Source of the DNA: Promethearchaeota archaeon
GTDB lineage: Archaea; Asgardarchaeota; Thorarchaeia; Thorarchaeales; Thorarchaeaceae
NCBI GenBank assembly: GCA_027031765.1
Contig: JALVPN010000221.1
Span: 1-22,700, forward strand
DNA: 22,700 nucleotides
Direction: 5' to 3'
Within the stretch, counting starts at the first letter, position 1, and each line of letters begins with the position of its first letter. A program made the position numbers and the translations under genes. Below are positions 1 through 22,700 of the stretch, piece by piece. The notes beneath the pieces were generated by a model. It saw nothing but the letters and a program-made list of their open reading frames with translations. It was not told the origin of the DNA and made no database searches.

Positions 1-2
1 CG

Positions 3-3349: not shown

Positions 3350-3376
3350 GTGCCCGGAACGCGCGTCCACTGGCCC

Positions 3377-3988: not shown

Positions 3989-3992
3989 GGTG

Positions 3993-5509: not shown

Positions 5510-5625
5510 GGGAACACCCCCAAAGGACTCTCCCGCTCGTACTCCCCTGCACCCGCCGGCTGCGACCGGTCACAACCCGGTCCAACGACAGGATTCATTG
5601 CCGTGGCCGGGGGGCGCCCTAGAGG

Positions 5626-6683: not shown

Positions 6684-7337
6684 TCACTCCGTCACGGGCT
6701 CTGATACTACAGGGCCCGAATACTTTGCCTGGAGCTCCTGCACGACCGCCCTTGCCTGGGCCCCCAACTCGTCCTCTCGTCCTACCAACGACTGCAATTC
6801 TGTCACTGCAATGGCATTGTGCCTGTGGGCCGCCAGGAACAGACTCTCAAGACAGTCGGTGAGCAGCTCCGTGTCCACTCCGCGGCCCTCCTCATATGCG
6901 ATAACTACTGGGTACGCAGCGTGTCTGTAAAAGTTGTTCTTGTATCCTTCCCCCAGAAAGGCAAGCCAGACATTCAGCACCAAGAGCATGATTCCGAAGG
7001 GAACATGCCCGCACATAAGCCCTTGGAACATGGGGTCAGCACTAGGACAGCAGAGAGAATACACAATCAAGAAGCCCAGGTTCCAGGGTAGGGCAACTAG
7101 GGTGAAATAGGAGCGGAGGTGGCTACCACACAGGAGCTGCCGCAAGCGACCAGCATGTCTGGTCGTGTATTCATCACCCCAGAAGTAGACATAGAGGATG
7201 GTCACAATGAAGGACTCTGGTACCATCACGCCTCCGAAAAAGATCATGATCCATGAGAAAAGGGCTATGTTTGAGAGAAAGATGTCGAAGACTGAGGAAA
7301 AGATGTCGAAGACTGAGGAAAAGATGTCGAGAGTCAT
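6684..7337 (-). CDS. Partner (putative immunity) membrane protein, family A
   Basis: ATGA overlap with the tip A stop. About 3 TM segments plus a helical C-terminal domain. Clear paralogue of 18747..19325 (shared FWGDEYTTRHAGRLR, AYEEGRGVDTELLTDCLES, QARAVVQELQAKYSGPVV). Confidence 0.75.
   Translation of the reverse strand: MTLDIFSSVFDIFSSVFDIFLSNIALFSWIMIFFGGVMVPESFIVTILYVYFWGDEYTTRHAGRLRQLLCGSHLRSYFTLVALPWNLGFLIVYSLCCPSADPMFQGLMCGHVPFGIMLLVLNVWLAFLGEGYKNNFYRHAAYPVVIAYEEGRGVDTELLTDCLESLFLAAHRHNAIAVTELQSLVGREDELGAQARAVVQELQAKYSGPVVSEPVTE
7278..7330. repeat. 21-bp tandem repeat, 2.5 copies (encodes DIFSSVF)
   Basis: aaagatgtcgaagactgagga x2 plus aaagatgtcga. Confidence 0.95.
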
Positions 7338-8257: not shown

Positions 8258-8790
8258 GGATGCCGGATATTATTAGTCGGCACTTGAGTGTTCCCAAGCC
8301 CTCCCGTAGGATCTGGGCTCGTACAACACACTCGTAAGAGGGCCATGAGAACTAACGGAAAGACCAACGAATACGTTAACTGCATGTCCTGCACCGTTTC
8401 CGGCAGTTCTTGGGGCCACAGTATTCCAATGACTAGCAAAGGCAGTCCGAAGAATATGGCGGTAGCACCGAGGTTGGCAATCAGACTTGCTCTCACGGTC
8501 CGGACAGTGGCCCCGTGAAGTCGGACGAGGAAAGGAAGAGGCCTCTCAGACTGGTCAGTCCTGGCCATAGCGGACTTTCTCGCATACCTCCTTGTTAGAT
8601 GACTTGCAATTCTAAGTACAATAAGTGGAAGGGAAGATATCATGTAAAGCCAGACCACAATCCATGGACTGATTGTCGTACGGACACCTCCTTTTCTCCT
8701 GCTATTTTGGACCTGAGAGGTAAATCCCTGCCATGACACCAAGTCCAAGCAATAGGAGCAGAGTTCGTGCACACTGCAAGAAAGTGTCAT
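8254..8790 (-). CDS. Partner (putative immunity) membrane protein, family C
   Basis: Three hydrophobic segments (WIVVWLYMISSLPLIVL, LGATAIFFGLPLLVIGILW, YSLVFPLVLMALL), directly after the 610-aa gene. The true start is uncertain and probably lies downstream of 8700 in transcription direction (GTG 8658 or ATG 8643). Confidence 0.65.
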   Translation of the reverse strand: MTLSCSVHELCSYCLDLVSWQGFTSQVQNSRRKGGVRTTISPWIVVWLYMISSLPLIVLRIASHLTRRYARKSAMARTDQSERPLPFLVRLHGATVRTVRASLIANLGATAIFFGLPLLVIGILWPQELPETVQDMQLTYSLVFPLVLMALLRVCCTSPDPTGGLGNTQVPTNNIRHP

Positions 8791-10534
8791 GGTACCCCCA
8801 CTCCTCTATTGTTTCGACCCTATACTTGCGTAGGGGTGTGAAAACTCGGCAGAAAAAAGTATGGGCAGCAAGCGTGTCCCCTCCAAAGACAATACCCCAT
8901 GTTAGTACAAATAACGAAACGACTGCATCACGCCATGCAATCTCTCTGAAAAGGTATCCCTGTGCAATGTTGACTATCAACGCAAATGCGAACCCAGTAT
9001 ATGCTAGCATGGACACCGTAAAAAGAAGTCTGGAATGCGGAATCAGTTGGAATGTGGCGAAAAACTGTGCCATCGTCAATGAAACCGTCACGCATATAGT
9101 GAGATCTCGGATTGCAGCGTGTCTGAGGACTCGCCCTACGGATGACTCGAAGTCCGCATCACTCATGGACTCTAGGAATGGGAAACTAAAGATACAGCTT
9201 TCTGTTGTGAGTGTTCCCAGTAGGTCCACATAGAAGACCATTGAGAATGTGAGCAATCCGATTACGAGGTTGAGAGTGAACTTCAAAGTTGGCCAAGGGC
9301 CTAACCATTCCAATTCGAGCGCATCTCTGGCCAGGTCTTCAAAACTAGCAACAAAACTTTCTGCCTGTGACCACCTACCTGCGCTCTGGGCAGTACCATC
9401 GGCAGTACCATCATACACCACCGGCTCATCCAGGTCCGGCGCTGTCGGGTCGTGCCGCGTCAGGTCCGCCACCACCCTGATGTCGTGGATTCGCATCCCC
9501 ACAAGGTCGGAACTGGAGTACCTGTAGCCCAGTATTGCCACGTACTTGATCACCCGGGAGGCATTGTTACAGTCGCCCAGTGCGAATGGGGCGGCCTGTC
9601 CATCGGTACTGGTAAAGACTGCGCCCTGTGGCGAGCCGTCGTGCTCGCCCCACGAGAACGTGACCGTCTTCTGGAAAAAGGACGTGTAGCTGTAGCCGGA
9701 CCACCTGCGGCAAGGCGACCCGCTGTCCTGTGGGTAGAAGTACGCATAGACGTAGCCCTTCCTGGCGTTGGACCACGAGTCACCAAACACCACCATCACT
9801 ACCCGTCGCATCTCCTCGTCACAGAGCGCGACGTACGTCTTGCCCATCCCGGCCCCGGAGTCCTGGAGCAGGTCGCAGACCACTGTGAACTCGCTGAGCT
9901 GGTAGAGCCTGAAGGGCCGGTCCAGGACGTGTACGTAGCACGGGCCGTGCCACCCCTCCCCGGTGGCTATCTCCGACCACGTCATGTAGCTCTGTCCTGA
10001 CGGTACTGTGAGCTCGCCGTCACCACGGGCACCGAAGGGGAACGACGGGTCGCTGTGGAACCCCTCCATGTCGTTGCACGTGTCGTGGAAGACCGTGGAC
10101 TCGGAGCCCACGTAGCTCACCCGGATGCCGTAGGCCCTCGCAAGGCCCTGAGTGACCCCATTGCGGTAGGCCTGTATGACGACGTACTGGATGGGCCTGT
10201 GACGGTCCACCTGGTCGTAGAGGTAGAGGACCTTCTCGTCAGCACCAGGCACGCCCGCCACCACTCCCTGTAGCGGGTCGTACCGCAGGGCCACCACGCC
10301 CGTGAACCGTCCCGGCACCGCCACCTGACTGCACGCGCTCGTACCGTCTTCCCGGTAGTAGTAGCGTGCGGTCACGTACACGGTTCTCCTGTTGAGGTGC
10401 CGCCCCAACAGCTGAGCTGTTTCGGGGGCACACCGACACACTCTGTCCTCTCTGAGCGTCCCCACAACACTACTGCGCGACACTGACACTGGAATGCTAC
10501 CTCTCCTCTTCTTTTCTCTCCTCTCCTCTCTCAC
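8702..10534 (-). CDS. Apparently full-length effector/surface protein: beta-rich N-terminal domain, junction module, hydrophobic tip type C
   Basis: 610-aa ORF. aa ~50-355 are rich in aromatic and beta-strand residues, DLTRHDP is at ~aa 357-363, and about 4 hydrophobic helices follow, ending TLLLLLGLGVMAGIYLSGPK. It is the only copy with a long intact N-terminus. Confidence 0.8.
   Translation of the reverse strand: MREERREKKRRGSIPVSVSRSSVVGTLREDRVCRCAPETAQLLGRHLNRRTVYVTARYYYREDGTSACSQVAVPGRFTGVVALRYDPLQGVVAGVPGADEKVLYLYDQVDRHRPIQYVVIQAYRNGVTQGLARAYGIRVSYVGSESTVFHDTCNDMEGFHSDPSFPFGARGDGELTVPSGQSYMTWSEIATGEGWHGPCYVHVLDRPFRLYQLSEFTVVCDLLQDSGAGMGKTYVALCDEEMRRVVMVVFGDSWSNARKGYVYAYFYPQDSGSPCRRWSGYSYTSFFQKTVTFSWGEHDGSPQGAVFTSTDGQAAPFALGDCNNASRVIKYVAILGYRYSSSDLVGMRIHDIRVVADLTRHDPTAPDLDEPVVYDGTADGTAQSAGRWSQAESFVASFEDLARDALELEWLGPWPTLKFTLNLVIGLLTFSMVFYVDLLGTLTTESCIFSFPFLESMSDADFESSVGRVLRHAAIRDLTICVTVSLTMAQFFATFQLIPHSRLLFTVSMLAYTGFAFALIVNIAQGYLFREIAWRDAVVSLFVLTWGIVFGGDTLAAHTFFCRVFTPLRKYRVETIEEWGYHDTFLQCARTLLLLLGLGVMAGIYLSGPK
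9421..9577. repeat. Junction module copy 2 (in the full-length gene)
   Basis: Encodes GDCNNASRVIKYVAILGYRYSSSDLVGMRIHDIRVVADLTRHDPTAPDLDEP. Confidence 0.92.
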
Positions 10535-11262
10535 TGTCTGCGTCTGTGTCTGTGTCCATGTCTGTGTTTCATGCAGGCGTCCTCTATCTTTCTCAGGCCC
10601 TCATGCGCGGTCCTGCACCCATGCCGGTGCATGGTACCACGCGACAGACGGGTGGATGAGGGTGCCCAGCCCCTACCCTGCACGGGGCCGGACCCGACTT
10701 TCTCTATCAAGTGCTACTCACATACGCGACAATATAAGGGGCGGGGTCACAGTGCCGTGCCGAACTCTGGCCCGGAGGGCCTGTCTGGCGCCATTCCGGG
10801 GATCATGGGAGAGGGAGAGGACGACGCGCCCACGAGGGTGTCCTGGAAAGGACAAAAATGGCCCTCTCTGCTTAACATCTGGCCACGCTGCTGGTGCGGC
10901 CACGACCACTCCGTCACGTGCTGTCCAGCGCCGGCTCCAGTGCAGGGTGTGCCACGGAGGAGAACCGGCCAGAAGACAGTCCACAACCCGTCCTTCAAGA
11001 GAGAGGGGAGCGACGGAAGAGAGATGAGTGAGGGATAGGACTGGCAACCAGATAGCATGTCTGCCGGAAAGGAGTTCAGCAGACGTTGTGGCCCGTCAAC
11101 TCAAGTCAATTCCGGCCCCGTATTTTGGGACACATCATTATCCGAAATATGCTCAGTCCTACTGTCAGTGCCGTGAAGACCAGTGTTGTCCGTCGTAGTC
11201 CGAGGAAATGGCAGTGGGCCTTTCCCTTGCAGGCCTGACAGCAGGAGGAAAATCTCAGTCCC

Positions 11263-11688
11263 TTACAACCGACCAAGAATGTTCAGTCCAATTATTCTTT
11301 CGAACTGGACAAGGTCATCGAGGTCGGACTTGAGTATGGTGAGCAGTATGGAGTTGTCAAAGTCCATGTAGCTGTGGACCAGGCGGTTCCTGAAGGCCGC
11401 CATCTTGGAAAGCCGCTCCGCAAAGTCCTGTGACAACAGACCATGCTTTGAAAGGACTGTGAACACTTCAGCATAGGAAGTGGGTTTTTCCCAGCCCATT
11501 CTACCTATGATTGCATTCCCGATGTCCAGACAGATCTGGATAGCTTCTATGAGATAGAACTTGGCGGCACCGAGATAGATACGGTTGTTCACCAGTTCGG
11601 CATGCCCTATTGATGCTATTTCTCTCAGGACAGCAATACTAGAGTCAAGTCGAGACAGTCTCTCCCTGATTGAACCAGAGGACATCAA
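11263..11688 (-). CDS. hepT: HEPN (DUF86/HepT-like) RNase toxin
   Basis: RNRLVHSY matches the R-X4-H-X-Y motif. EAIQICLDIGNAII and P-T-S-Y-A-E-V-F are typical of DUF86. Overlaps the MNT gene. Confidence 0.9.
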   Translation of the reverse strand: MMSSGSIRERLSRLDSSIAVLREIASIGHAELVNNRIYLGAAKFYLIEAIQICLDIGNAIIGRMGWEKPTSYAEVFTVLSKHGLLSQDFAERLSKMAAFRNRLVHSYMDFDNSILLTILKSDLDDLVQFERIIGLNILGRL

Positions 11689-12125
11689 GAGGCCTCACCG
11701 TCCACAAGGCGCCTGTGCAGATATGCGTAGTACGTGTCAAGGGCATACTTGAAGTCGAGGTACTCGATAAGCGTCCGGGTCTCAAAGGATGCCCGGATCT
11801 CATCGTCAAGACAATAGATGACGCGCCCGTCCTTGATGACCTGGTACCGGAACTCCACAGGGGCGTGGTCCAGGGACTGGAGGTCCACTTCGACATCAGG
11901 AACAATCCGGGACAGGTCGTAGGTCAGGTCTCTCAGGAGAGATGCGTACTCTGAGTCTGGTGTGCCATCTGGGAGCAGGACCGCAATATCGAGGTCACTG
12001 AGCGGAGTCGTAGCTCTCAAGGCGTAGGAACCATGGAGGTAGGCCAGTACAACGCCTTGGGTCGCCAGTATCTCGGTTATTGCCGGCAGCAATGCCTCCA
12101 GCTCTTCAGGACTCGGTCCAGTCAT
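11685..12125 (-). CDS. mntA: Minimal nucleotidyltransferase (MntA-like) antitoxin
   Basis: YLHGSYA...SDLDIAV catalytic motif, VDLQSL third Asp, 146 aa, directly upstream of the HEPN gene. Confidence 0.9.
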   Translation of the reverse strand: MTGPSPEELEALLPAITEILATQGVVLAYLHGSYALRATTPLSDLDIAVLLPDGTPDSEYASLLRDLTYDLSRIVPDVEVDLQSLDHAPVEFRYQVIKDGRVIYCLDDEIRASFETRTLIEYLDFKYALDTYYAYLHRRLVDGEAS

Positions 12126-12212
12126 CGGTACTTACCTGTTGATTGCGTCTCCTCGGAGTCCATTCTCAAGTATTCACACCGGCCTTACTGTAAAAAACGT
12201 ACTGGATGATGG

Positions 12213-12470
12213 CACCACAACTCCCTGTCTCGACAGGGGAGGAGACCATAGTCCCGGACGACTGCACACTACTACCTCCACCCTGTGGGTGGGAGTAGAC
12301 GTTGGGCCAGCCCTTCCCGTGCGGAGGACATCATCCGCCCCTCGCCCCTCGCCGTGGCCGCAACAGTGACCGCGCACAGGGCCCATGGCATGCGGCACAT
12401 ATCAACGCCCGTGCTCAGCGGGACTGCGGGGGCCACCCCTGGTCCTTCATGACTCAGAGTGGTCAGTCCG
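12213..12470 (-). pseudogene. Truncated cassette homology arm (no junction module or tip follows)
   Basis: Matches 22250-22490 and 14945-15040. Encodes SSAR/(frameshift)/KGWPNVYSHPQGGGSSVQSSGTM, homologous to SNARKGYVYAYFYPQDSG of the 610-aa gene. Homology ends at ~12213. Confidence 0.75.
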
Positions 12471-12666
12471 TGGTGGTCAAGCGCCGTCCTCGCACATGTC
12501 CATCTCGTCCAGTCCCGTGTCATCCTCCATCTCCTCCTCTATCTCCTCATCTGCCGGATATGGTCTGCCGGCGCCCCAGTACCTGTAGCGAGGGTCATAC
12601 ATAGGGTAACAGCACGTCATTACTACTACCCAGAGGACGAAGATGGGGTATCTTCCCATCTCATAC
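12283..12666. repeat. ~385-bp direct repeat, near-identical to 22318..22700
   Basis: Base-by-base comparison shows only scattered substitutions and small indels. Covers the 3' end of partner E plus the downstream arm. Confidence 0.93.
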
Positions 12667-12998
12667 ATGACACCTGACAGGAAAGCGGGGGGCAACAGGA
12701 GCCACCAGAACAAGGACGTGGGCAATACAGCGGAAGCATATGCCATGAGCATGTATGTGACCAGGTCTACTGGTCGTGTCACGTGTTCTGCGTACCATGC
12801 ACCACGTCTCGTGGGGTCAAGTCCCGCCCCTCTCATCTTCAGCACAAGCTGCCACTCACCGTCACGTCTGTAGCGACTGAACAAGATATAGATGGTCCCA
12901 CCAACCAGTACTCCAGTGCACCATGCAATCAAACTGAGGACACCTTCCTGCACCTGACAGCCCTCCGGCCGATAGTCCGGCCCGTAGTCACGTCCCAT
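12477..12998 (-). CDS. Partner (putative immunity) membrane protein, family E, with acidic tail
   Basis: About 4 hydrophobic segments and a C-terminal DEEIEEEMEDDTGLDEMD. ATG overlaps the stop of 12988..13203. Paralogue at 22511..22700. Confidence 0.72.
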   Translation of the reverse strand: MGRDYGPDYRPEGCQVQEGVLSLIAWCTGVLVGGTIYILFSRYRRDGEWQLVLKMRGAGLDPTRRGAWYAEHVTRPVDLVTYMLMAYASAVLPTSLFWWLLLPPAFLSGVMYEMGRYPIFVLWVVVMTCCYPMYDPRYRYWGAGRPYPADEEIEEEMEDDTGLDEMDMCEDGA

Positions 12999-13203
12999 CA
13001 GACCACTGATAAATCCACCCTACTAAGAAGCCAACTGCAAAGACGACTATAGTGAGCAAGACGACAAGATCCGCCAACATGAGTCCAAAATGTATCCGCC
13101 CCTCAAGGCCTCTCTTCTGCCACTGTTGCCCATGCTGATACCGCTCTCTGAAACACCTGGAGTACTCCGCAGCACCCCTACTCTTTTCACCCAAACGATA
13201 CAT
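12988..13203 (-). pseudogene. Probable remnant C-terminal end of a tip (type E)
   Basis: Ends in one long hydrophobic helix (FGLMLADLVVLLTIVVFAVGFLVGWIY), as tips B, C and D do, and overlaps the partner E start. No junction module upstream. Confidence 0.45.
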
Positions 13204-13239
13204 ACTCTACCTGAGCCGAGAGAAACAGGGAAAGGCAGA

Positions 13240-13890
13240 CTACTGTCTGCTGGACTCTTCTTTGAGCTTGTGTCGTTCCCAGAAGAACCTGACAATAGCA
13301 TGTGGTGAGTATCCAAAAGTGAGGCCCAGCAGCGGGATAATGAAAACACGTGGGTCTTGGAGTACAAACCAAATGGCCAGGAGCAAGGGCACATAGATCA
13401 CGACTATCGAAGAGAGCAAGAATGCTACAGTCCATTCTGTCTTGAAGAGGACCCTTCCGACAGGCGTTTCTTCAAACTCTTCTGAAAGTGTTTTTTCCCC
13501 TGACGTTGTGCGTCGCTCCCTCATCTTTTGCGAATGTCCCACAAGAGGGACGCCTATCAGCAGGGAATACAAGAACCATCCTATAGAAGATGAGAGGCCG
13601 ACCATCATTGCAGCTGGGAAGAGGGGTGACGACATCCCCAAGTCAGGCGGAAAGGGCTGTAGTAGGATTTTGACTGCAAGCCAGACCATCAGTATGGAAG
13701 GCACAATCATTACAAGGAATAAGACAGCAAGAAACACAAGAAATGAGAAGTCCCTCGTGTCCTTCATTCTCTCGCCGGGGTCTCTCATACCCAGTGACAT
13801 GACAGTAATCCCTTCCTTCCGGCTATTGTCCACATCCTTGTCAGGTTCAGACCCTGCTTGTACTTGGATGTCATACAAGGTCCATTCCAT
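13240..13890 (-). CDS. Partner (putative immunity) membrane protein, family D
   Basis: Four TM segments (FLVFLAVLFLVMIVPSILMVWLAV, MMVGLSSSIGWFLYSLLIGV, VAFLLSSIVVIYVPLLLAIWFV, FIIPLLGLTFG). Overlaps the tip D stop. Confidence 0.78.
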   Translation of the reverse strand: MEWTLYDIQVQAGSEPDKDVDNSRKEGITVMSLGMRDPGERMKDTRDFSFLVFLAVLFLVMIVPSILMVWLAVKILLQPFPPDLGMSSPLFPAAMMVGLSSSIGWFLYSLLIGVPLVGHSQKMRERRTTSGEKTLSEEFEETPVGRVLFKTEWTVAFLLSSIVVIYVPLLLAIWFVLQDPRVFIIPLLGLTFGYSPHAIVRFFWERHKLKEESSRQ

Positions 13891-14860
13891 TCAGGTAACA
13901 CCAGCTCAATACTCCAATTGCAGAGGCGAAGAGTCCTACAGCAGCAACCATCACAATCCCTGCTACAACAACATTTGAGACCACTTGTCTTGCTCTGTTG
14001 ATTTCCTCATCAGAGTGGAGTCTTGTTTCTATGTACTCAAAGTAGTCCATCTCGACAGGCGAGTTCAACCTGACTGCCTCAGCCAACGTGACAATACTGT
14101 CACACAGACACAGAAAGCCCATGAAAATCAACACAACAGCCGCAGTAAGCGGTCTGAGCACTCCATTGATGGTGTCCGTAACAACTCTTGCAGCTCCCAG
14201 GAAGATAGCTGTTGCGAAAGAAATGGCGAGTACCACGAAAAGAGCGCTGCCCAGACCAGTTTCTGCAGAGAGTGCAGCTGCAGCCATTGCTCGCTCCAGC
14301 AACTCCGCAACGAGCCAGGGAATTCCACCCGGTCCCAACAGATACTCAAAAGCATCATCGACAGCAGCACGGAAGACCGTGAGCGGGTCTTGTGTTCCCG
14401 CTGCATATCTCAGGAGAAGTGGCTGGAACAGGTCGATCATGCCATCCGGATGGACCTGGAAGCTTCCAAGAATATCAATGGAAAAATGTAGGCACATGTT
14501 CACCTCAGGGACTGGTGAGAACGTAATAAGAGAATGTAGTGTCGGCCACCACCCCGTCCAATACACCGTAAGATACTCTTGGACCGTTTCGAAGAGACTC
14601 TCCGCAAGGGTCTTGGCCTGGGCCGTCTGTCCGGTAACTGTACCATCATCTCCGACCGGCTCGTCCGGGTCTGGTGCTGTTGGGTCGTGCCGCGTCAGGT
14701 CCGCCACCACCCTGATGTCGTGAACCCGCATCCCCATAAGGTCGACACCGGAGTACCTGTAGGCCAAGACTGCCACGTACTTGATCACCCGGGAGGCATT
14801 GTCGCACCCGCCTATGAGACTTGGCGTCCCTGACCCACCAGTCCTCGCATACACCGCTCC
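13871..14860 (-). CDS. Orphan cassette, variable tip type D (5'-frameshifted)
   Basis: Homologous part of track ORF 13871..15277 starts at GAVYARTGGSGTPSLIGGCDNASRVIKYV...DLTRHDP, followed by YWTGWWPTL...DILG and hydrophobic helices. Confidence 0.72.
   Translation of the reverse strand, partial: GAVYARTGGSGTPSLIGGCDNASRVIKYVAVLAYRYSGVDLMGMRVHDIRVVADLTRHDPTAPDPDEPVGDDGTVTGQTAQAKTLAESLFETVQEYLTVYWTGWWPTLHSLITFSPVPEVNMCLHFSIDILGSFQVHPDGMIDLFQPLLLRYAAGTQDPLTVFRAAVDDAFEYLLGPGGIPWLVAELLERAMAAAALSAETGLGSALFVVLAISFATAIFLGAARVVTDTINGVLRPLTAAVVLIFMGFLCLCDSIVTLAEAVRLNSPVEMDYFEYIETRLHSDEEINRARQVVSNVVVAGIVMVAAVGLFASAIGVLSWCYLNGMDLV
14656..14810. repeat. Junction module copy 3
   Basis: Encodes CDNASRVIKYVAVLAYRYSGVDLMGMRVHDIRVVADLTRHDPTAPDPDEP. 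Confidence 0.92.
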
Positions 14861-14891
14861 CCGACCCACCGGTGCCCGCATACACCGCTCC
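14830..14891. repeat. 31-bp tandem duplication (frameshifting)
   Basis: ctgacccaccagtcctcgcatacaccgctcc / ccgacccaccggtgcccgcatacaccgctcc. Confidence 0.88.
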
Positions 14892-15198
14892 CTGACCACC
14901 CCGGTACGACTCCCACCAAGACTCCCCAGTTTCGACAGACCAAGACTCCCCAGTCTCGACAGAGGAGGAGGCCATGATCCCTGACGACTGCACACCACTA
15001 CCTCCACCCTGTGGGTAGGGGCAGACGTTGGGCCAGCCCCTGGTGGTACCACCTCACACACCGTCCAGATTCGCCCCATGCACCGCCCCAGTGGACACGC
15101 ATCACGGTTTCCCCCTACTTGTCGTCTGGGCCCAGCTGTGTCCTGTCCGCCACCAATGTCACTATGTCCGCCACCTTGTCCTATGGGGGGATTGTGGA
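14861..15198 (-). pseudogene. Frameshifted homology arm of cassette D
   Basis: Encodes in shifted frames VTLVADRTQ..., GWPNVCPYPQGGGSGVQSSGIM...ESWWESYRGGQGAVY, homologous to aa ~215-320 of the 610-aa gene. Confidence 0.7.
14915..14962. repeat. 24-bp tandem duplication (SVETGESW x2)
   Basis: accaagactccccagtttcgacag / accaagactccccagtctcgacag. Confidence 0.92.
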
Positions 15199-15858
15199 CT
15201 AATCCCCATTCTGTAGACGTGCCGCATACCATTCTGCGTACCATTCTCTGTAGGCCCTCCCAAATGCCTCTCCGCACTCATCGTCCCGCGCCAGCAGTTG
15301 TCTGAATGCTCTGGCAAAGCTGTTTCGCGTCCTCCCCTGACGCATCTTCTCGTACTTCGTGAGCAGACGGTGCACTAGTTCCTTGAATGCAGTCCTATCA
15401 GGTGTTGACTGACGAAATGCCGTTTCTACTGCCCCTACTATTTCATCTGTTGGAAGTTGTTCCCATGCCTCTTCCCATGCCCGCTCCCTGTCTGTCGTTT
15501 CTCTTCTCCCGAACCGTCTTAACGCACCTTTGTATGTGTCATAGAAGAAAGTTGGTGCAGTCAGGAAGATTGTCAATAGAACTCCAATCAGTGTAGTCTC
15601 GGCATTCTCGTAAGAGCCTGAGATGTAGGGCCACAAGCACAAGAATGTAATGAAGGCCACTGCCACAACATCGAACATACCATAGGTCGTCATTGCTCGC
15701 CTGAAAGTCCCACAGAAGAACCGTCCCACCCTCCGGAGTACGATGGGGCCACATTCATGCTCGGAACAAATGTCGGATACCCAGATGAAAACGGCCAACA
15801 GGAAGACCGTCCCGAACACTCCAAAGACTTGCAAGAGAAGGAGCTGTTGTTCAGTCAT
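15199..15858 (-). CDS. Partner (putative immunity) membrane protein, family B
   Basis: GAGGTG ribosome-binding site, 12 bp after the tip B stop. Three TM segments plus a helical C-terminal domain. Paralogue of 20537..21241. Confidence 0.8.
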   Translation of the reverse strand: MTEQQLLLLQVFGVFGTVFLLAVFIWVSDICSEHECGPIVLRRVGRFFCGTFRRAMTTYGMFDVVAVAFITFLCLWPYISGSYENAETTLIGVLLTIFLTAPTFFYDTYKGALRRFGRRETTDRERAWEEAWEQLPTDEIVGAVETAFRQSTPDRTAFKELVHRLLTKYEKMRQGRTRNSFARAFRQLLARDDECGEAFGRAYREWYAEWYAARLQNGD

Positions 15859-15870
15859 CAGATCCCCACC

Positions 15871-16842
15871 TCAAGAGTTCTCAAGACCCATTGTCAAGAA
15901 CCTGGAGATGCAATAGACACAAGTGACCAGGACTGCTACCTTTACCAGTGCTATTGCGGCATACCAAAGGCCTATTCTAAGGGGACCAGAAGGCATTGCA
16001 TCGAGTGGCCGTAGCAGTTCCCATAGACCAGACATGAACCATGCCATTCGGAGAGCATAGGCTAGCCCCGGGAAAAGCAGGCCTAACAATGTGGCTAGTG
16101 CTGTAGCTGCACCGAAGGGATGGACTATTCCCTCATCGACAACATAGAACAGATACGCCAAGTAAGATACAAATATCACAGTCCAAGCAGCAAGCATCGC
16201 TAGTAGGGTTCCCAAATCCATGCCAATCGTCAGAGGAGACGCCACAGCTTCTATTGCCCTCAACCCTAGTGATAGAGCATAGCTCAATGCTACAGGGATG
16301 ACAAAAAGGGAAATGAAATCAGTGTATTGTGTTTCCATTTCTGTAGCTGCACTCCGTAGCTCTTGTTCCGAATGTTCCCGTTCAACCGGAGTAACTATAC
16401 TCAGTGAATGTACTTGAAAGTCACCCAAGATATCAGTCGACACAAGGAATGTCAGAGTCCCCTCCCCATCAAATGTCCCAGTGAACTGCAAGAATAGACG
16501 GGGCCAGCAGTTGACCAGCTCCCAGGAGACATCAATTGACTGGAGGAATGGACTCAGGACTGCACCCACACTCTCTACGAGGTCGTCCTGATGCTCAACC
16601 GCCCCCATTCCTGTCCCATCAGATACCACCGGCTCCTCCGGGTCTGGCGCATCCGGGTCGTGCCGTGTCAGGTCTGCCACCACCCTGGTGTCGTGTATGC
16701 CCATCCCCATAAGGTCGACACCGGAGTACCTGTAGCCAAAAATCGCCACGTATTTGACCACGCGCGAGGCATTGTCGCACTTGCCTATCAGACCGGGCGT
16801 TCCAGACCCATCAGTGCCCGCATTCACCGCTCCCCGACCACC
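15871..16842 (-). CDS. Orphan cassette, variable tip type B (5'-frameshifted)
   Basis: Homologous part of track ORF 15871..17088: GGRGAVNAGTDGSGTPGLIGKCDNASRVV...DLTRHDP...NCWPRL...DILGDFQV plus hydrophobic helices. Paralogue of 21238..22302. Confidence 0.72.
   Translation of the reverse strand, partial: GGRGAVNAGTDGSGTPGLIGKCDNASRVVKYVAIFGYRYSGVDLMGMGIHDTRVVADLTRHDPDAPDPEEPVVSDGTGMGAVEHQDDLVESVGAVLSPFLQSIDVSWELVNCWPRLFLQFTGTFDGEGTLTFLVSTDILGDFQVHSLSIVTPVEREHSEQELRSAATEMETQYTDFISLFVIPVALSYALSLGLRAIEAVASPLTIGMDLGTLLAMLAAWTVIFVSYLAYLFYVVDEGIVHPFGAATALATLLGLLFPGLAYALRMAWFMSGLWELLRPLDAMPSGPLRIGLWYAAIALVKVAVLVTCVYCISRFLTMGLENS
16629..16785. repeat. Junction module copy 4
   Basis: Encodes KCDNASRVVKYVAIFGYRYSGVDLMGMGIHDTRVVADLTRHDPDAPDPEEP. 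Confidence 0.92.
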
Positions 16843-16965
16843 CTGAGAGGGCCCACCACAACTCCCCGGCCTTCTTGGACGGGGTGCGGACATGTCCGGG
16901 ACCCTAGTAGCCTGGAGGACCTGTCCTGTGGACAGAGGTATGCGTTGGACCAGCCCTTGGTGAGA
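16843..16965 (-). pseudogene. Frameshifted homology arm of cassette B
   Basis: Alternative frames encode KGWSNAYLCPQDRSSR and GELWW, matching the arm consensus. Confidence 0.6.
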
Positions 16966-17105
16966 CCGACCCCGCACACCACCCCGGAGGAGGGGCATCA
17001 CAGTTTCCTCCTGCCTATCAACTAGGCCTGCGCGTGTCCTATCCGTCATATTGGCGTCCTCATATACCCACTGGACCACGAGTGGCATTGCGATGCCAAC
17101 GATGA

Positions 17106-17576
17106 CTATTCTGATCCCAGTCCGGACTCCTCGTCTGCTCCCTCCTCGTCCTCCTCATCCTCCTCATCCTCCTCGTCCTCCTCGTCCTCCTCATCCTCCT
17201 CGTCCTCCTCCTCATCCATTGGCTCCTCCGTCACCATTATGGTCAACAGAATGGCATTCAGAAAGCCCCCCCAAGAAAAAGTCAGAAAGTCGTCAATGGA
17301 AGGATGAGGGGGTCCAAACAAGAAGTCTACGAGCTCGGATGGCGCAAGGAGATATCCTGCAAGGAGTATACACAGAAAAGGGGCTTCGAGTGCAATGATA
17401 TTGTACATGAACTCTGTAATCCGCTTCTCTGATGCTTTCAGATACAAGATGGCAATCACTGGACAGGCCTCTTCAGCTCCTCTGAGATGTCGGATGCCAT
17501 AGACACTCCCCACCCCTAGAACAATCAGTATCAAGACGCCTGCAACTAGGCCTAGCAAGAACCAATCGACATACAT
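17106..17576 (-). CDS. Orphan partner-like membrane protein with poly-acidic tail
   Basis: ATG at 17576 with GGAGG upstream (MYVDWFLLGLVAGVLILIVLG). About 3 TM segments and a C-terminal (EED)n tract. Confidence 0.75.
   Translation of the reverse strand: MYVDWFLLGLVAGVLILIVLGVGSVYGIRHLRGAEEACPVIAILYLKASEKRITEFMYNIIALEAPFLCILLAGYLLAPSELVDFLFGPPHPSIDDFLTFSWGGFLNAILLTIMVTEEPMDEEEDEEDEEDEEDEEDEEDEEDEEGADEESGLGSE
17142..17217. repeat. 9-bp tandem array encoding (EED)n
   Basis: (tcctc[ag]tcc)n, about 8 units. Confidence 0.92.
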
Positions 17577-17807
17577 AGTCTGTTCCTCCGCAGTGACATG
17601 TAGACAAAGACTGATTTGAATGCCAGCACTGTCCTCAGTCCCCTCCGGAGTAGACAAGAGATGCCAGTAGGACAGTATACGCGAGCAAGACTCATTGATG
17701 CTCCTGCTGTCCCGTCATTCATCACCGGCTGGTGACAATGAAGACCAAGGCATCGTCTCTGGAGCTCTGGAGTGATACTTCAGACATGCAGTGTTAACAA
17801 TCCGTTG

Positions 17808-18287
17808 TTAGTCCAGTCCTTCATTGCGGAACCAGAATTTGTCAACGACAAGAAGTACCAGGAAGATTCCCCCAAGAATGATGGTTAGTGTCCAGAGGGG
17901 GAGAAGGCCTTGGAGTACTCTGTTTGAGAGAGACTGGGGTCGATGAAAAGGAATGGGCCACAGCATTACGATACCGTTAAAGGCAATTATGAGCAGCTCC
18001 AGTACTCCCCGCCACCAGCGTGGCCTGGACTCCAAGAGAGCAACGTCCTCTGTTACCAGTCCTTCAAGGCCGAACAGGACTTCAATAAGGGATGTCCCGA
18101 GATACTTGTCGCAGAACCAGAGAGATAGAAAAAACGTGACAAGAGCAGTAACGAGCCAGATGAGAAACTTATGCCAGGGAGATAGAAACAACGTCGATAG
18201 AAACAGCGTCACAAGAGAGACGACGACCCAAATGACAAACAACTGGTATAGATGCGGTCCTCGGACTGTTCTAGTCATCACTGTCAC
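17808..18287 (-). CDS. Orphan partner-like 4-TM membrane protein
   Basis: Four hydrophobic segments, GAGGTG upstream, similar size and topology to partners C, D and E. No intact cognate tip. Confidence 0.75.
   Translation of the reverse strand: MTVMTRTVRGPHLYQLFVIWVVVSLVTLFLSTLFLSPWHKFLIWLVTALVTFFLSLWFCDKYLGTSLIEVLFGLEGLVTEDVALLESRPRWWRGVLELLIIAFNGIVMLWPIPFHRPQSLSNRVLQGLLPLWTLTIILGGIFLVLLVVDKFWFRNEGLD
18181..18210. repeat. 15-bp tandem duplication (TLFLS x2)
   Basis: gatagaaacaacgtc / gatagaaacagcgtc. Confidence 0.85.
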
Positions 18288-18299
18288 CTCTTTCAGTCC

Positions 18300-18632
18300 T
18301 CATACCACCCAACCTGGAGCGTGAAAAGGTGAATCCGCAGACTGCATGGCAGTGATCTGTCCCACTTCCCAGGCCACCGCCCGTAGCCACATAGTAGCGG
18401 GAACGGTCATCATCCACCCTGCAGCCCTCATTGCCACCCCTTGCCTCGTGTTGGCCCAAAGACACATCCCAGTGCTTACCGCCACTGCATAGACCGGGAA
18501 CACGGGATTTCCAAGGAGCGACACCAACAGAACCTCCAACTCGTTGTAGTCGGGTCGGTTCTTTGTCTTTTTTGGCAGCACCGGATGACTTGGTAGGGCC
18601 ATCCGGTACGGTTGACAGTCCGTCAAGACCAA
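18300..18632 (-). pseudogene. Possible degenerate tip remnant upstream of orphan partner 17808..18287
   Basis: Hydrophobic stretch LEVLLVSLLGNPVFPVYAVAVSTGMCLW...AAGWMMTVPATMWLRAVAW in the position where a tip is expected. No junction module. An overlapping frame (18271..18750) competes. Confidence 0.3.
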
Positions 18633-18746
18633 GAATGAACAGGTGCACCAACAAGGGGGCGGACAATACCACTGGCCCCGTCCTAGGCGACCGGGGCCAC
18701 ACCAGCAGTTGTCGCTGCAACGTGAGAAACGGTCTTCTGTGCCCCA

Positions 18747-19325
18747 TCACTCTGTCACGGGCCCTGGCACCACCGGGCCCGAATACTTTGCTTGGAGTTC
18801 CTGCACGACCGCCCTTGCCTGAACCCCCAACTCGTCCTCCCGGTCTATCAACGACTGTAATACCTCCTCTGCGATGACACTGTGCCTGTGGGCGGCCAGG
18901 AACACACTCTCAAGACAGTCCGTGAGGAGCTCCGTGTCCACTCCGCGGCCCTCCTCATACGCGGCAACTATCGGCTGCACAACATGTCTGGGAAAGCAGT
19001 CCTTGTACAGCTCTCCTATATAGACAGCCCCAATATTCAGCACCACCAGAGCGACAGCTCCGAGGAGGACATCCCACCACAGAGGAGTCCCCTGAAACAT
19101 GGGGTCATCACTGAGACTGTCGAGAAAATGCCCGATGAAGAAGCCCAGGTTCGCGGGCAGGGCAACAAGGGTGAAATAGGAGCGGAGGTGACTACCACAC
19201 AGGACTCGCCGCAGGCGACCAGCATGTCTGGTCGTGTACTCATCACCCCAGAAGACAGTGGTGATTGAACAGACCCACGCTAGTGCCATTACAGCTGCTA
19301 CCACAGCCAAGCGAAAAGAGGTCAT
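18747..19325 (-). CDS. Partner membrane protein, family A (allele A')
   Basis: ATG at 19325 in a TAATG overlap with the tip A' stop. Paralogue of 6684..7337. Confidence 0.78.
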   Translation of the reverse strand: MTSFRLAVVAAVMALAWVCSITTVFWGDEYTTRHAGRLRRVLCGSHLRSYFTLVALPANLGFFIGHFLDSLSDDPMFQGTPLWWDVLLGAVALVVLNIGAVYIGELYKDCFPRHVVQPIVAAYEEGRGVDTELLTDCLESVFLAAHRHSVIAEEVLQSLIDREDELGVQARAVVQELQAKYSGPVVPGPVTE

Positions 19326-20389
19326 TACTGTACCTCCATGAACTCTCTGACTGAGATCTCGTAAAACTTTGTCCATACGAACCACATAGATGCGACTATG
19401 AAGAAGTTGAACGCCGCAGCGACTATTCCCCAGAGAAGTCGGAAACGGTACGTTTCTCTGAGCTTACCAAACAAGTCCTCGGAAACATGCCACAAGAGTG
19501 GTACTATGAGGGCATACCCGACAAGCCCCGTTGGGTATGACAAGGCCATGCCCAACCACAGTCCCAGCAGTCCGACTACGAAATCGGCTGTGACCGCGCC
19601 TGCTCCATAGGCCGCTAGGAGTAGCGTAATCCACCGACTCCAAATCGCATAGTAACCAAGCATAAGGGCCACTTTTGCAGCAGGTTCTAGGCACGCCGCC
19701 ATCATGCAGGTGTCTACTACACCCAGACCAATTAGCAATGCGACACTCGACCACGCGATGGCAGTTGAAACAGTGTTCTCAACGGCAGTTGCCTCTGCCA
19801 CATGCACTGCCCAGGACTGCTCCTGTGCGTCAGTCATCCGGTCGTCCACCGGCGTGTCAATCTCACACCCTTCGACTCGAAAGTCACACAGCAGGTCGAC
19901 CGAGACGTGCAGAGTAGCCGTGCCACCTGCTGGAGTCGAGACCGTCAACGACAGGTGAATGCGGGGCCACCACCCTTCCCACCATGCCACAACCTGCTCC
20001 GGCAACCCCTGGATGTCATCCAGGAGGGACTGGACAGCTGGCGAGGGCTCGACCTCTGCATAGCACCCGTCAACAGTCCCATCGGACTCCTCTGGCTCCT
20101 CCGGGTCTGGCGCATCCGGGTCGTGCCGCGTCAGATCCGCCACCACCTTGATGTCGTGTATCCGCATCCCCACAAGGTCGAAACCAGAGTGCCTGTAACC
20201 CGAGACCGCCACGTACTTGGCCACACGCGGGGCATTGTCGCACTCGCCTATCGGACCAGGCGTCGCAGGCCCAGTGCTCACATTCACCGCTCCATCACCA
20301 CCCACCGGACAGTCCCCACCACAACGCCCCAGTCTTCCTGGACAGGGTGCACGAGTACCCTGGGTCCCAGTGGCCTGGAGGACTGTCAT
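19325..20389 (-). CDS. Orphan cassette, variable tip type A (allele A')
   Basis: IGECDNAPRVAKYV...DLTRHDPDAPDPEEP...WWEGWWPRIHLSLTV. In-frame homology starts ~20300 and upstream homology is in another frame. Confidence 0.72.
   Translation of the reverse strand: MTVLQATGTQGTRAPCPGRLGRCGGDCPVGGDGAVNVSTGPATPGPIGECDNAPRVAKYVAVSGYRHSGFDLVGMRIHDIKVVADLTRHDPDAPDPEEPEESDGTVDGCYAEVEPSPAVQSLLDDIQGLPEQVVAWWEGWWPRIHLSLTVSTPAGGTATLHVSVDLLCDFRVEGCEIDTPVDDRMTDAQEQSWAVHVAEATAVENTVSTAIAWSSVALLIGLGVVDTCMMAACLEPAAKVALMLGYYAIWSRWITLLLAAYGAGAVTADFVVGLLGLWLGMALSYPTGLVGYALIVPLLWHVSEDLFGKLRETYRFRLLWGIVAAAFNFFIVASMWFVWTKFYEISVREFMEVQ
20092..20248. repeat. Junction module copy 5
   Basis: Encodes ECDNAPRVAKYVAVSGYRHSGFDLVGMRIHDIKVVADLTRHDPDAPDPEEP. 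Confidence 0.92.
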
Positions 20390-20536
20390 GTAGAGAGGAG
20401 TAGACGTTGGACTGGCGTCTCATGCCGCCGGCCCACGCAACGCCCTGTCGACAGGCATCACGGTCGCTGTTGCTCGTCGTCCAAGCCCGGCTGTGTCATG
20501 TCCGCCACCAATGTACACTGTGTCCGCCACCCTGTC
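20390..20536 (-). pseudogene. Frameshifted homology arm of cassette A'
   Basis: A shifted frame reads RQSNVYSSLHDSPPGHWDPGYSCTLSRKTGALWWG (running into 20310), versus YAYFYPQDSGSPCRRWSGYSYTSFFQKTVTFSWG in the 610-aa gene. The TLVADMTQ segment is shared with 15100-15200. Confidence 0.68.
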
Positions 20537-21241
20537 CTATGGGGAGGCCATGGACTGGTCCCCGTCCTGTAGATATGTAGCATACCATTCTCTGTAGGCC
20601 CTCCTGAATGCCTCCCCGCACTCATCGTCCCGGGCCAGCAGCTGTCTGAATGCTCTGGCAAAGATGTTTCGCGTCCCCCCCTGACGCATCTTCTCGTACT
20701 CTGTGAGCAGACGGTGCACCAGTTCCTTGAATGCAGTCCTGTCAGGTGTTGACTTACGAAAGGCCGTCTCTACTGCCCCTACTACTGCATCTACTGGGAC
20801 CTGCTCCCACGCCTGTTCCAGGGCCCGCTCCCTGTCTGTCATCTCTCTTCTCCCGAACCGCCTTGAGAGCTCTCTGTATCTGCCGTAGACAGAGAAAATG
20901 AGAAAGAACAGTGGTAGAAGAATAAAAATCCAAATCACGGACAGAAGAAACAGGGATAGGCCATCCATCGGGCCTGCTGGCACTGACAATAGTGCTGACA
21001 GAAGTGGCACTGACAATAGTGCTGACAGAAGGAATGCTACCATAACATCAAACATGACATAGGTCGTCATTGCCCGTTTGAAAGTCCCACACAGGAAACG
21101 TCCCACCCTTCGCAGTACCATGGGGCCACATTCATGCTCGGAACAACAGTCGGATACCATGATAAACAAGCCGAACAACAGGAGTATTGCGGGCGCCCAG
21201 ATAATGAGGACTATCGGGAGGGGCGGTTGTTCGGTCATCAT
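20537..21241 (-). CDS. Partner membrane protein, family B (allele B')
   Basis: ATGA overlap with the tip B' stop. Paralogue of 15199..15858 (CSEHECGP, STPDRTAFKELVHRLLT, ARAFRQLLARDDECGEAF). Confidence 0.8.
   Translation of the reverse strand: MMTEQPPLPIVLIIWAPAILLLFGLFIMVSDCCSEHECGPMVLRRVGRFLCGTFKRAMTTYVMFDVMVAFLLSALLSVPLLSALLSVPAGPMDGLSLFLLSVIWIFILLPLFFLIFSVYGRYRELSRRFGRREMTDRERALEQAWEQVPVDAVVGAVETAFRKSTPDRTAFKELVHRLLTEYEKMRQGGTRNIFARAFRQLLARDDECGEAFRRAYREWYATYLQDGDQSMASP
20978..21031. repeat. Perfect 27-bp tandem duplication (LLSALLSVP x2)
   Basis: tggcactgacaatagtgctgacagaag x2. Confidence 0.95.
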
Positions 21242-22302
21242 GTTTCCACCTCAGAAGTCCAGTTCCTGAGACCCATCTCCAAGAACTTGACAATGTAATA
21301 GATACAGGTGACCAGGACCGCTACCTTTACCAGTACGACTGTGGCAGACCAGAGGCCTATCTTGCGGGAGCCAGAGGGCAGCCCTAGGTCGAAAGGTCGT
21401 CGTGTTCTCCATATACCAGACATGCACCAGGCCCTGCCAAGGACCAAGCGCATGGATCCGTCCCCAAGAAACGGTATCAAGAATGTGGTCAATGCTCCGG
21501 CGGCAGCAAGAGGACTGGTCACCCCCTCATCTACAGTATGGACTAGATACACCAAGTATGACACGAATGCCACAGTCCAAGCAGCAAGCATCACTAGCAG
21601 GACTCCCAGACTTGTGTCAATATTCAAAGGAGATGCCACAGCTTCTATTGCCTTCCATCCCAGTCCCACAGTAAGGGCAAGTGCCGTAGGGACAGCGTAT
21701 TCTGAAATGAGCTCGTCGTATTGTGTTTTCATTTCTGCCACTACATTCTGTAGCTCCTGCTCTGAGAGTCCCTGCTCAACCGAAGTAGCTATACTCAGTG
21801 AATGTATTTGAAAGTCACCCAAGATATCAGTTGAAACGAGTAGTGTGAGAGTCCCCTCCCCATCAAATGTCCCAGTGAACTGCAAGAATAGACGGGGCCA
21901 GAAGTTGACCAGCTCCCAGAAGACATCAATTGGCTGGAGGAATGGACTCAGGACTGCACCCACACTCTCTACGAGGTCGTCCTGATGCTCAACCGCCCCC
22001 ATTCCTGTCCCATCAGATACCACCGGCTCATCCGGGTCTGGCGCATCCGGGTCGTGCCGCGTCAGGTCCGCCACCACACTGGTGTCGTGTATGCGCATCC
22101 CCACCAGCTCGGGACTGGAGTACCTGTAGCCCAGGACTGCCACGTACTCGACCACCGGCAGGGACTTGTTGCACTCCGCTATCAGACATGCACTCTCCTG
22201 TCCGTCAATGCTCGGATACACCGTCCCGTGGCCACCCCGAAACGGATCCCACCACAACTCCCTTGTTTCGACAGAGGAAGTCATAGTCCCCGATGACAGC
22301 AC
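21238..22302 (-). CDS. Orphan cassette, variable tip type B (allele B')
   Basis: The frame is homologous to the 610-aa gene from KGWPNVYSYPQ (22350) through G-T-V-Y-P-S-I-D-G-Q and the junction module. In-frame stop at 22366-22368. Confidence 0.72.
   Translation of the reverse strand: MLSSGTMTSSVETRELWWDPFRGGHGTVYPSIDGQESACLIAECNKSLPVVEYVAVLGYRYSSPELVGMRIHDTSVVADLTRHDPDAPDPDEPVVSDGTGMGAVEHQDDLVESVGAVLSPFLQPIDVFWELVNFWPRLFLQFTGTFDGEGTLTLLVSTDILGDFQIHSLSIATSVEQGLSEQELQNVVAEMKTQYDELISEYAVPTALALTVGLGWKAIEAVASPLNIDTSLGVLLVMLAAWTVAFVSYLVYLVHTVDEGVTSPLAAAGALTTFLIPFLGDGSMRLVLGRAWCMSGIWRTRRPFDLGLPSGSRKIGLWSATVVLVKVAVLVTCIYYIVKFLEMGLRNWTSEVET
22023..22178. repeat. Junction module copy 6
   Basis: Encodes ECNKSLPVVEYVAVLGYRYSSPELVGMRIHDTSVVADLTRHDPDAPDPDEP. 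Confidence 0.92.
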
Positions 22303-22490
22303 ACCACTGCCTCCATTCTGTGGGTAGGAGTAGACGTTGGGCCAGCCCTTCCCGTGCGGAGGACATCATCCGTCCCTCGCCCCTCACCGTGGCCGCAACA
22401 GTGACCGCGCACAGGGCCCAGAGCATGCGTGACACATCAATGCCCGTGCTCAGCGGGACTGCGGGGGCCACCCCGGCCCTTCATGACTCA
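22303..22490 (-). pseudogene. Frameshifted homology arm of cassette B'
   Basis: tcc tcc gca cgg g aag ggc tgg: one extra G separates SSAR from KGWPNVYSYPQ (compare SNARKGYVYAYFYPQ). Confidence 0.7.
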
Positions 22491-22510
22491 TAGTGGTCAG
22501 TCCGTGGTGG

Positions 22511-22700
22511 TCAAGCGCCGTCCTCGCACATGTCCATCTCGTCCAGTCCCGTGTCATCCTCCATCTCCTCCTCTATCTCCTCATCTGCCGGATATGGTCT
22601 GCCGGCGCCCCAGTACTTGTAGCGGGGGTCATACATAGGGTAGCAGCACGTCATTACTACTACCGAGAGGACGAAGATGGGGTATCTTCCCATCTCATAC
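22511..22700 (-). CDS. Partner membrane protein, family E (allele E'), 5'-partial
   Basis: Near-identical to the C-terminus of 12477..12998. The frame runs off the right edge. Confidence 0.75.
   Translation of the reverse strand, partial: YEMGRYPIFVLSVVVMTCCYPMYDPRYKYWGAGRPYPADEEIEEEMEDDTGLDEMDMCEDGA

Follow-up and report, generated by a model that had tools for sequence, protein, structure and literature searches.

The 22.7-kb window analysed here, which is the whole of contig C221 of a Thorarchaeota archaeon, carries a tandem array of two-gene units that we read, with a probability of roughly 70%, as the downstream part of a Thorarchaeota-only polymorphic locus, in which spare units, each consisting of a variable membrane 'tip' and a small downstream 'partner', would be loaded on one long lectin-like protein as a membrane effector/immunity-like system. 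In the mechanism that we propose, homologous recombination at a conserved junction would place new tip–partner units on the long gene, and displaced units would accumulate downstream as 5′-truncated orphan cassettes bearing variable lengths of the last lectin-like domain (arms). The tip would serve as a membrane-active, ionophore-like effector or as an identity determinant, the partner as the cognate in-membrane immunity or recognition protein, and the lectin domains would give contact at the cell surface. An earlier note on this DNA had proposed that the arms, frameshifted relative to open tips, persist as recombination substrates through which silent tips are activated by transfer into an expressed gene, which it took to be that of a 610-amino-acid (aa) protein. 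Genes of interest all lie on the minus strand, to which coordinates refer unless stated; L001–L021 are related loci elsewhere, and L022 and L023 are contigs C137 and C42 of the same genome, a short-read metagenome-assembled genome (MAG) of 2.95 Mb in 229 contigs.

Full-length homologues of the 610-aa protein are 900–2000 aa long, with a signal-like N-terminus. Their body holds two or three copies of a ~200-aa domain and then a conserved junction of ~55 residues or ~165 bp (CDNASRVIKYV...GYRYS..LVDMRIHDIxVVADLTRHDP), after which follow ~230–260 aa of variable, hydrophobic sequence. An AlphaFold2 (AF2) model of the 610-aa protein (predicted local distance difference test (pLDDT) 83) renders the repeated domain as a concanavalin-A (ConA)-like sandwich, with Foldseek matches to the CBM2 module of the phage J-1 Dit protein, the calreticulin lectin domain and GH16 glucanases (E 4e-7 to 1e-4). 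A tip-only model (pLDDT 88.8) has one helix, then a sheet of four strands and then four to five long helices; 2–5 transmembrane (TM) helices are predicted per tip and likewise per partner. The tip types are distant homologues of one domain, 15–25% identical and of uniform length, and the partners of different cassette types are unrelated to each other in sequence. Pfam returned nothing for the N-terminal region of the full-length proteins, nor for the tips, the partners and most of the body (the long gene does have a Glce_b_sandwich/CBM-like insert), and no toxin domain or trafficking module (type V, VI or VII secretion systems (T5SS, T6SS, T7SS), PrsW and others) was recognised on tips, partners or most of the body. 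The long protein had no match among PDB sequences. The tip model, searched with Foldseek against PDB and by shape against the ESM Atlas, gave nothing significant, the claudin and CorA rows being weak (TM-scores 0.14–0.21). Complex prediction for tip B′ with partner B′, the one pair run, scored 0.01, which weighs neither way on binding. Our literature search found no description of these protein families; the archaeal polymorphic-toxin survey of Makarova et al. 2019 (mBio) lay outside its coverage.

With the exception of one record labelled Lokiarchaeota, every named homologue of the 610-aa protein is from a Thorarchaeota MAG, and the related loci found in GTDB species representatives are archaeal in 21 of 21 cases and Thorarchaeota wherever named. 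The family comprises 204 cluster representatives, many of them proteins of 280–400 aa that start at query aa 250–350, as orphans would. Four genetic hallmarks of a polymorphic-toxin locus were found: a conserved body with a variable C-terminus, a shared junction motif, a co-varying downstream gene and tandem 5′-truncated orphans (with main-gene adjacency inferred).

The window holds six cassettes (and C42 three more), among which A and A′, and B and B′, are paralogous modules with nucleotide identities of ~80% and ~77%. In blastn, similarity between the 610-aa gene and the cassettes is confined to aa 320–378 (80–88% identity), and exact matches of 18–41 bp between either long gene (that for the 610-aa protein or the longer one on C137) and the cassettes all fall within the junction. 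In the arms, exact matches to the long genes stay below 12 bp, with the exception of one 19-mer beside the junction. The junction is present in all cassettes at 79–91% nucleotide identity, and synonymous divergence (dS) within it is 0.16–0.47 between cassette types whose tips are ~20% identical. Cassettes B and B′ are 95–100% identical over ~240 bp running from the junction into the tip start (16460–16700), as against 43–67% in the arms and 55–80% in the membrane part, and a comparable block, 92–93% identical, is present in the partners of the two cassettes. Because the long exact matches, the low dS and the conversion tract all sit at the junction, we interpret the ~165-bp junction, not the arm, as the recombination handle, with gene conversion acting from it into the tip start; the arms, which in B and B′ are only 43–67% identical, are not the recombination substrate that the earlier note took them for.

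The idea of a reservoir of spare cassettes, by contrast with that of the arms as substrates, is supported, since tip–partner pairs travel as units, long alleles swap tips and tips are kept open. Adjacent pairs recur in other genomes (L002 and L009 have the B type, L013 the 610 type, and L002 also a C42 type). In two long alleles, P0002 and P0037, the 329 residues ahead of the junction have 84% identity and the sequence that follows it 24%; for L010 and C137 the corresponding values are 70% and 39%. A tip type can also sit in either position: the B-type tip, an orphan here, ends the 719-aa protein P0030, and the tip type of the main gene occurs on short proteins elsewhere (P0059, P0063 and P0120). 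In L009, four orphans whose arms are staggered come after a full-length gene, and the first orphan has a frameshifted arm piece; staggered-arm arrays, some frameshifted, are found in L009, L001, L003, L011 and L021.

Read from 22.7 kb downward, the array runs from the end of partner E′ through B′ and its partner, A′ and its partner, a tip remnant and its partner (18443–17808), a lone partner (17657–17106), B and its partner, D and its partner and a duplicated block (13193–12213, in which partner E stands between the 3′ remnant of a tip and an arm remnant) to an MNT/HepT pair (12125–11263), the 610-aa gene and its partner, and cassette A and its partner. Arms were sought with a profile hidden Markov model (HMM) of the family's last domain plus junction (219 positions) against all stop-to-stop fragments, and HMM positions below refer to it; z scores are from a frameshift-aware protein–DNA alignment of arms to the 610-aa protein, compared with dinucleotide shuffles.

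22513–22700 (−): 3′ part of partner E′, truncated at the contig end; its 5′ part is C137:1–255.
22177–22350 (−): arm of cassette B′, left from the last lectin-like domain (aa ~257–320 in the 610-aa protein) and in frame with the tip; HMM 99–217, 119.5 bits; tblastn match to aa 259–469.
21238–22176 (−): cassette B′, junction (22007–22176) plus variable membrane tip with TM helices; open reading frame (ORF) 21238–22302; junction 85% identical to the 610-aa gene.
20537–21241 (−): partner B′, built of three TM helices and a soluble tail; shares 61% aa identity with partner B; homologues directly follow B-type tips in L002 and L009.
20249–20412 (−): arm of cassette A′, frameshifted relative to the tip; HMM 117–136 in another frame; z 6.1 with three shifts; homologous to the B arm up to 16950/20412.
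19325–20248 (−): cassette A′, junction plus tip; ORF 19325–20389; 80% nucleotide identity to cassette A at 7333–8185.
18747–19385 (−): partner A′, 71% aa identity to partner A.
18306–18443 (−): 3′ end left over from a lost tip; a 46-aa stretch matches the L004 cassette's C-terminus at 59% identity.
17808–18287 (−): partner outliving its tip, five TM helices; a homologue directly follows the L004 cassette.
17106–17657 (−): lone, tipless partner with an acidic repeat tail (9-bp repeat at 17141–17217); 64% identity to L002:4131–4559, which follows a cassette.
16776–16967 (−): arm of cassette B in three frames; collinear HMM pieces in frames 2, 1 and 0; z 10.3 with three shifts; 4-bp and 2-bp indels relative to the B′ arm.
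15871–16775 (−): cassette B, junction plus tip; ~240-bp tract at 16460–16700 95–100% identical to B′.
15199–15858 (−): partner B, an ORF with homologues beside B-type tips.
14867–15047 (−): arm of cassette D, out of frame (frame 2 versus frame 1); HMM 97–154, 32.6 bits; a 31-bp tandem duplication (14827–14897) spans the arm/junction border.
13871–14866 (−): cassette D, junction (14640–14802) plus tip; 88.6 bits; junction 88% identical in nucleotides to the 610-aa gene.
13240–13890 (−): partner D, 3–4 TM helices.
12999–13193 (−): 3′ remnant of a copy of the main-gene tip, 93% identical to C137:256–458.
12477–12998 (−): partner E, an ORF and an intact second copy of the main gene's partner.
12213–12476 (−): duplicated spacer plus arm remnant (arm at 12223–12315); no junction or tip follows; it ends beside the MNT/HepT pair.
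8702–10534 (−): 610-aa gene, a long-arm orphan of 1.3 lectin-like domains, junction and tip; 5′-truncated, with family homology from ~10385.
8254–8790 (−): partner of the 610-aa gene, 56% identity to L013:2023–2466, which follows a 610-type tip.
7334–8257 (−): cassette A, armless, beginning within the junction; HMM 160–205; paralogue of A′.
6684–7337 (−): partner A, an ORF paralogous to partner A′.

The arms reported in the earlier note upstream of B′, A′, B and D were recovered as HMM pieces; what had been placed at 12.2–12.5 kb proved to be a mere remnant at 12223–12315, and cassette A (7334–8257) had no arm in the HMM search. Three of the four arms are frameshifted relative to their tips, as claimed. 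The D arm (14850–15047, HMM 97–154, 32.6 bits) is in a different frame from junction plus tip (14624–14866, 88.6 bits) because of the 31-bp tandem duplication at 14827–14897, with which the frameshift coincides; a second duplication, of 24 bp, lies nearby at 14915–14963. Cassette B has weak collinear pieces in three frames (16911–16967, 16847–16891 and from 16839 downward), and A′ a single weak piece (20307–20366) in a frame different from that of its junction and tip (20066–20308). The fourth arm, that of B′, departs from the claim, being whole (22177–22350, HMM 99–217, 119.5 bits) and in one frame with its tip. In the frameshift-aware alignment, arms matched the 610-aa protein at z = 3.2–10.3 with 1–3 frameshifts, D being off register.

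Homology of the arms had been put at aa ~215–320 of the 610-aa protein; it holds for aa ~257–320, and aa ~215–257 match at chance level. At the DNA level, 65 to 198 of 200 shuffles reach the score of this upstream part in three long-arm cassettes, and in frameshift-aware protein alignment of the upstream pieces alone 37, 75, 90 and 27 of 100 do so; for the 12.3-kb copy, 3 of 100 shuffles reach the score. The similarity of KGWPNVYSYPQ to KGYVYAYFYPQ was found as described. The 'extra G' said to mark the 12.3- and 22.35-kb copies lies just where homology ceases to be detectable on the 5′ side and so does not qualify as a frameshift; that both copies have it is trivial, because 12213–12666 and 22250–22700 are one segmental duplication, 93% identical over 455 bp. 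We consider the arms to be decaying relics, probably by-products of cassette displacement. Four of them start at one domain position (22350, 15047, 16967 and 12315; HMM ~97–99, the KGY/W..Y.YPQ strand), and the truncation of the 610-aa gene (10385) lies at the equivalent position of the preceding repeat; a common arm start could reflect a preferred breakpoint or common descent of the arms.

The 610-aa gene, regarded earlier as the expressed acceptor, is itself 5′-truncated. Family homology in its product does not begin before residue ~55, halfway through the penultimate lectin domain, so that the first several hundred family residues are missing, including the part that bears the signal-like N-terminus in full-length homologues; the sequence ahead of residue ~55 is translated low-complexity DNA. 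The genome's sole copy of the family's N-terminal region is on the 4.1-kb contig C137, within a 1283-aa ORF whose 5′ side is open at the end of the contig, which makes the full-length gene there longer than 1283 aa. The 610-aa gene is itself an orphan, not the master gene. C137:1–458 is 93% identical to 12739–13193, and C137 can be placed next to the 22.7-kb end of the window because both ends match one duplicated block, leaving a gap of 72 bp (25 codons) between the two matched pieces that in the reference copy falls inside partner gene E. Most likely, C137, with the main gene and the start of partner E′, directly precedes the 22.7-kb end, and the assembler broke at the repeat. At the 5′ boundary of the 610-aa ORF, a low-complexity stretch of (ACAGAC)n/(GAGAG)n (10500–10570) is translated as the annotated N-terminus; contig depth over it is very high in two metagenome runs (413 and 122).

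Tips and partners were said to stay open, and within the window they do (six tips of 307–370 codons from junction or arm, and all partners); genome-wide the statement fails, with one tip on C42 interrupted by an in-frame TAG. That C42 cassette (L023 2564–3766, −) has an intact in-frame arm of ~100 codons, with 87% DNA identity to the 610-aa gene, and its single TAG comes after the sheet region. Ratios of nonsynonymous to synonymous divergence (dN/dS, NG86) were 0.62 (A/A′) and 0.55 (B/B′) for tips, and 0.56 and 0.41, respectively, for partners. In the B/B′ module alignment, tip indels are of 6 and 3 bp and arm indels of 4 and 2 bp. When the observed number and spectrum of substitutions were placed at random sites in a neutral simulation, the tip remained stop-free in 1.1% of trials for both pairs, and the partners in 8% and 0.3%. 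Decay does occur, as the tip remnants at 12999–13193 and 18306–18443 attest. Three partners outlive their tips (12477–12998, 17808–18287 and 17106–17657), and the array holds no tip without a partner; three partner-only modules against zero tip-only modules fit a harmful tip that is neutralised by its partner.

The same asymmetry, typical of immunity genes, speaks against an alternative that we consider unlikely but the best of those weighed, in which the locus is a device for kin or self-recognition, not a weapon. Tip and partner would form an allele-specific membrane complex (compare Proteus IdsD/IdsE and myxobacterial TraA) and the spare cassettes would be identity alleles; the junction-swapping mechanism is common to both explanations, and the pay-off alone differs. 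Several observations suit it: tip and partner are both multi-pass membrane proteins, all tips are variants of one domain, not different toxin folds, the lectin-like ectodomains are suited to cell–cell contact, and the producer's tip would sit in its own membrane beside the partner. A Pfam scan, however, detected no signalling domain on either the tip-bearing protein or the partner.

Rather improbable, in our judgement, is that the cassettes are not silent at all, but are ordinary paralogous two-gene membrane modules translated from internal starts near the junction, with arms as untranslated leader DNA. Every cassette ORF does have an ATG or GTG upstream of the junction, gene callers predict hundreds of 280–400-aa products of this kind, and open frames with dN/dS below 1 are as expected of expressed genes. 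However, start positions are unconserved, with ORFs beginning in arm or junk sequence, and ~100–150 residues would have to cross the membrane N-terminally without a signal peptide. Furthermore, the same tips are fused to long bodies elsewhere, and the junction evolves in concert with the long gene. The lack of a TATA-like box ahead of any cassette is a weak point on the same side, as none was seen for any array gene; the coding strand has one TATA-like hexamer in 17 kb.

A graveyard, in which displaced tips are pseudogenes that look intact because they were recently displaced and partners alone are kept as collected immunity genes, would account for the two tip remnants, the C42 TAG, the clearly decaying arms and the fairly high dN/dS, but is very unlikely given that A/A′ and B/B′ differ at 20–22% of nucleotides yet are stop-free with 3n indels only while the adjacent arms gained several frameshifts, that a recent conversion tract reaches into the tip start, and that tip and partner have similar dN/dS.

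Several points weigh against the effector/immunity-like reading that we prefer. The tips match no Pfam family and no fold in PDB or the ESM Atlas. All of them belong to a single domain type (~15–25% identical), whereas classical polymorphic toxins have unrelated C-terminal folds. A signal-like N-terminus together with a C-terminal helical bundle would anchor the protein in the producer's own membrane, which is awkward for delivery. Tip dN/dS of ~0.6 is that of moderately constrained sequence, and one tip of this genome carries a stop. The adjacency of C137 and C221 is inferred rather than sequenced; as the MAG is built from short reads, misassembly of repeats could account for some arm indels; and no recombinant molecules were seen in the contigs of the source metagenome, the one DNA data set found to contain this sequence (no RNA data set was listed). 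Two contig joints that appeared recombinant (9820>20076 and 22277>14978) were rejected as cross-mapping, as they match C42 paralogues at 83–89% and have short sides.

A further proposal, which we regard as quite doubtful, is a Thorarchaeota-specific contact system: a toxic, channel-like tail, silenced by the cognate partner, would keep a lectin-studded surface protein in the cell's own membrane, and membrane fusion between neighbouring cells, or exchange through protrusions or vesicles, would deliver the tail to partner-less cells, killing or rejecting them. If true, this would be membrane-exchange kin discrimination among the nearest prokaryotic kin of eukaryotes, with cassette swapping at a 165-bp junction as its source of diversity.

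RadA (4442–5509) and an XPD helicase (1325–3370) are present, and on this basis the contig is archaeal; the source sample was apparently a hydrothermal-vent metagenome. G+C content is 0.63–0.65 over these housekeeping genes (RadA and XPD; window 1–6000) versus 0.49–0.60 over the cassette array (6600–22700), and the lower value of the array suggests foreign origin or relaxed codon usage. A 320-aa ORF between RadA and the first partner gene (5626–6588, −) has no Pfam match, and an Rfam search of the window gave zero matches. The MNT (Polbeta nucleotidyltransferase) and HepT toxin–antitoxin pair (11263–12125, −) lies inside the array exactly at the cut-off of the duplicated block 12213–13193 and may mark the rearrangement that split the array. 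Within partner B′, a perfect 27-bp tandem duplication is in frame (20978–21031, LLSALLSVP twice), and the 9-bp repeat of the lone partner (17141–17217) encodes a (DEE)n acidic tail; partner E is likewise acidic at its end. The N-terminal region of the long protein (L022/C137 3400–4104, −) has a His-Gly ... Ala-Cys-Glu-Ser spacing resembling that of caspase/legumain-type peptidases, and an ESM-Atlas feature search of this region gave a weak CHAT-domain lead (0.90); a caspase/CHAT-like N-terminus, if real, could be a self-processing or releasing protease.

To our knowledge, almost nothing is known of how Asgard archaea compete with or recognise one another, and models of eukaryote origin depend on their cell–cell contacts. 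Genetically, the locus bears all the marks of a polymorphic toxin/immunity system of bacteria: conserved body, swap junction, cognate pairs, orphan arrays and gene conversion. Reassigning the handle to the translated junction, the arms to by-products and the 610-aa gene to the orphans shows experimenters the graft site and the acceptor gene.

Among known systems, the closest genetic layout is that of the orphan cdiA-CT/cdiI and rhs-CT/rhsI arrays found in the contact-dependent growth inhibition (CDI) and Rhs loci of bacteria (Poole et al. 2011, PMC3150448; Koskiniemi et al. 2014, PMC3967940; for the framework, Zhang et al. 2012, PMC3482391). As in those arrays, a long surface-protein gene is followed by 5′-truncated C-terminal fragments, each with a small downstream gene; a short conserved motif common to the orphans marks the onset of variability; orphans retain varying upstream homology without clear start signals; and, from strain to strain, modules move between the main position and the orphan ones. 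The 2011 account of bacterial orphan arrays (PMC3150448) already covered upstream homology of variable extent, the absence of start signals and the 'reservoir' idea. A frameshifted arm is an expected by-product of displacement, not the mechanism. Unlike the CDI and Rhs loci, this one is in an Asgard archaeal host, has no sequence or fold relation to CdiA or Rhs and no T5SS or T6SS context, has a body of ConA-like lectin repeats, and has tips that are all one membrane domain, compared with diverse enzyme folds.

By function, the nearest analogue would be the CDI ionophore family, in which a five-helix membrane-spanning C-terminal effector is paired with a highly polymorphic integral-membrane CdiI (Halvorsen et al. 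2024, PMC11630599). The counterpart here may be the predicted bundle of four to five long helices, paired with a partner of 2–5 predicted TM helices, and one structural family has many cognate pairs. The Thorarchaeota tips differ in having no Foldseek similarity to solved structures and in the helix and four-stranded sheet that precede the bundle, and no receptor-hijacking entry domain is known for them.

Among archaea, the nearest analogue would be the VARTIG module of Thermococcales, a hypervariable C-terminal immunoglobulin (Ig) domain on the arCOG07710 protein (Makarova et al. 2021, PMC8416519), for which a search for analogues in other archaea reported none (PMC8416519). Both are archaeal, lineage-restricted loci in which a large surface protein has a recombination-driven hypervariable C-terminus and variable downstream genes, and the same three hypotheses on function apply. 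The variable part is a membrane bundle here and an Ig domain there, the body ConA-like versus Ig, the host a member of the Thorarchaeota, and, unlike VARTIG, the present locus has clear tandem orphan cassettes with cognate partners. We therefore describe the Thorarchaeota locus as probably working like the CDI/Rhs, CDI ionophore and VARTIG systems, to none of which, having no sequence or fold kinship with them, it is said to belong.

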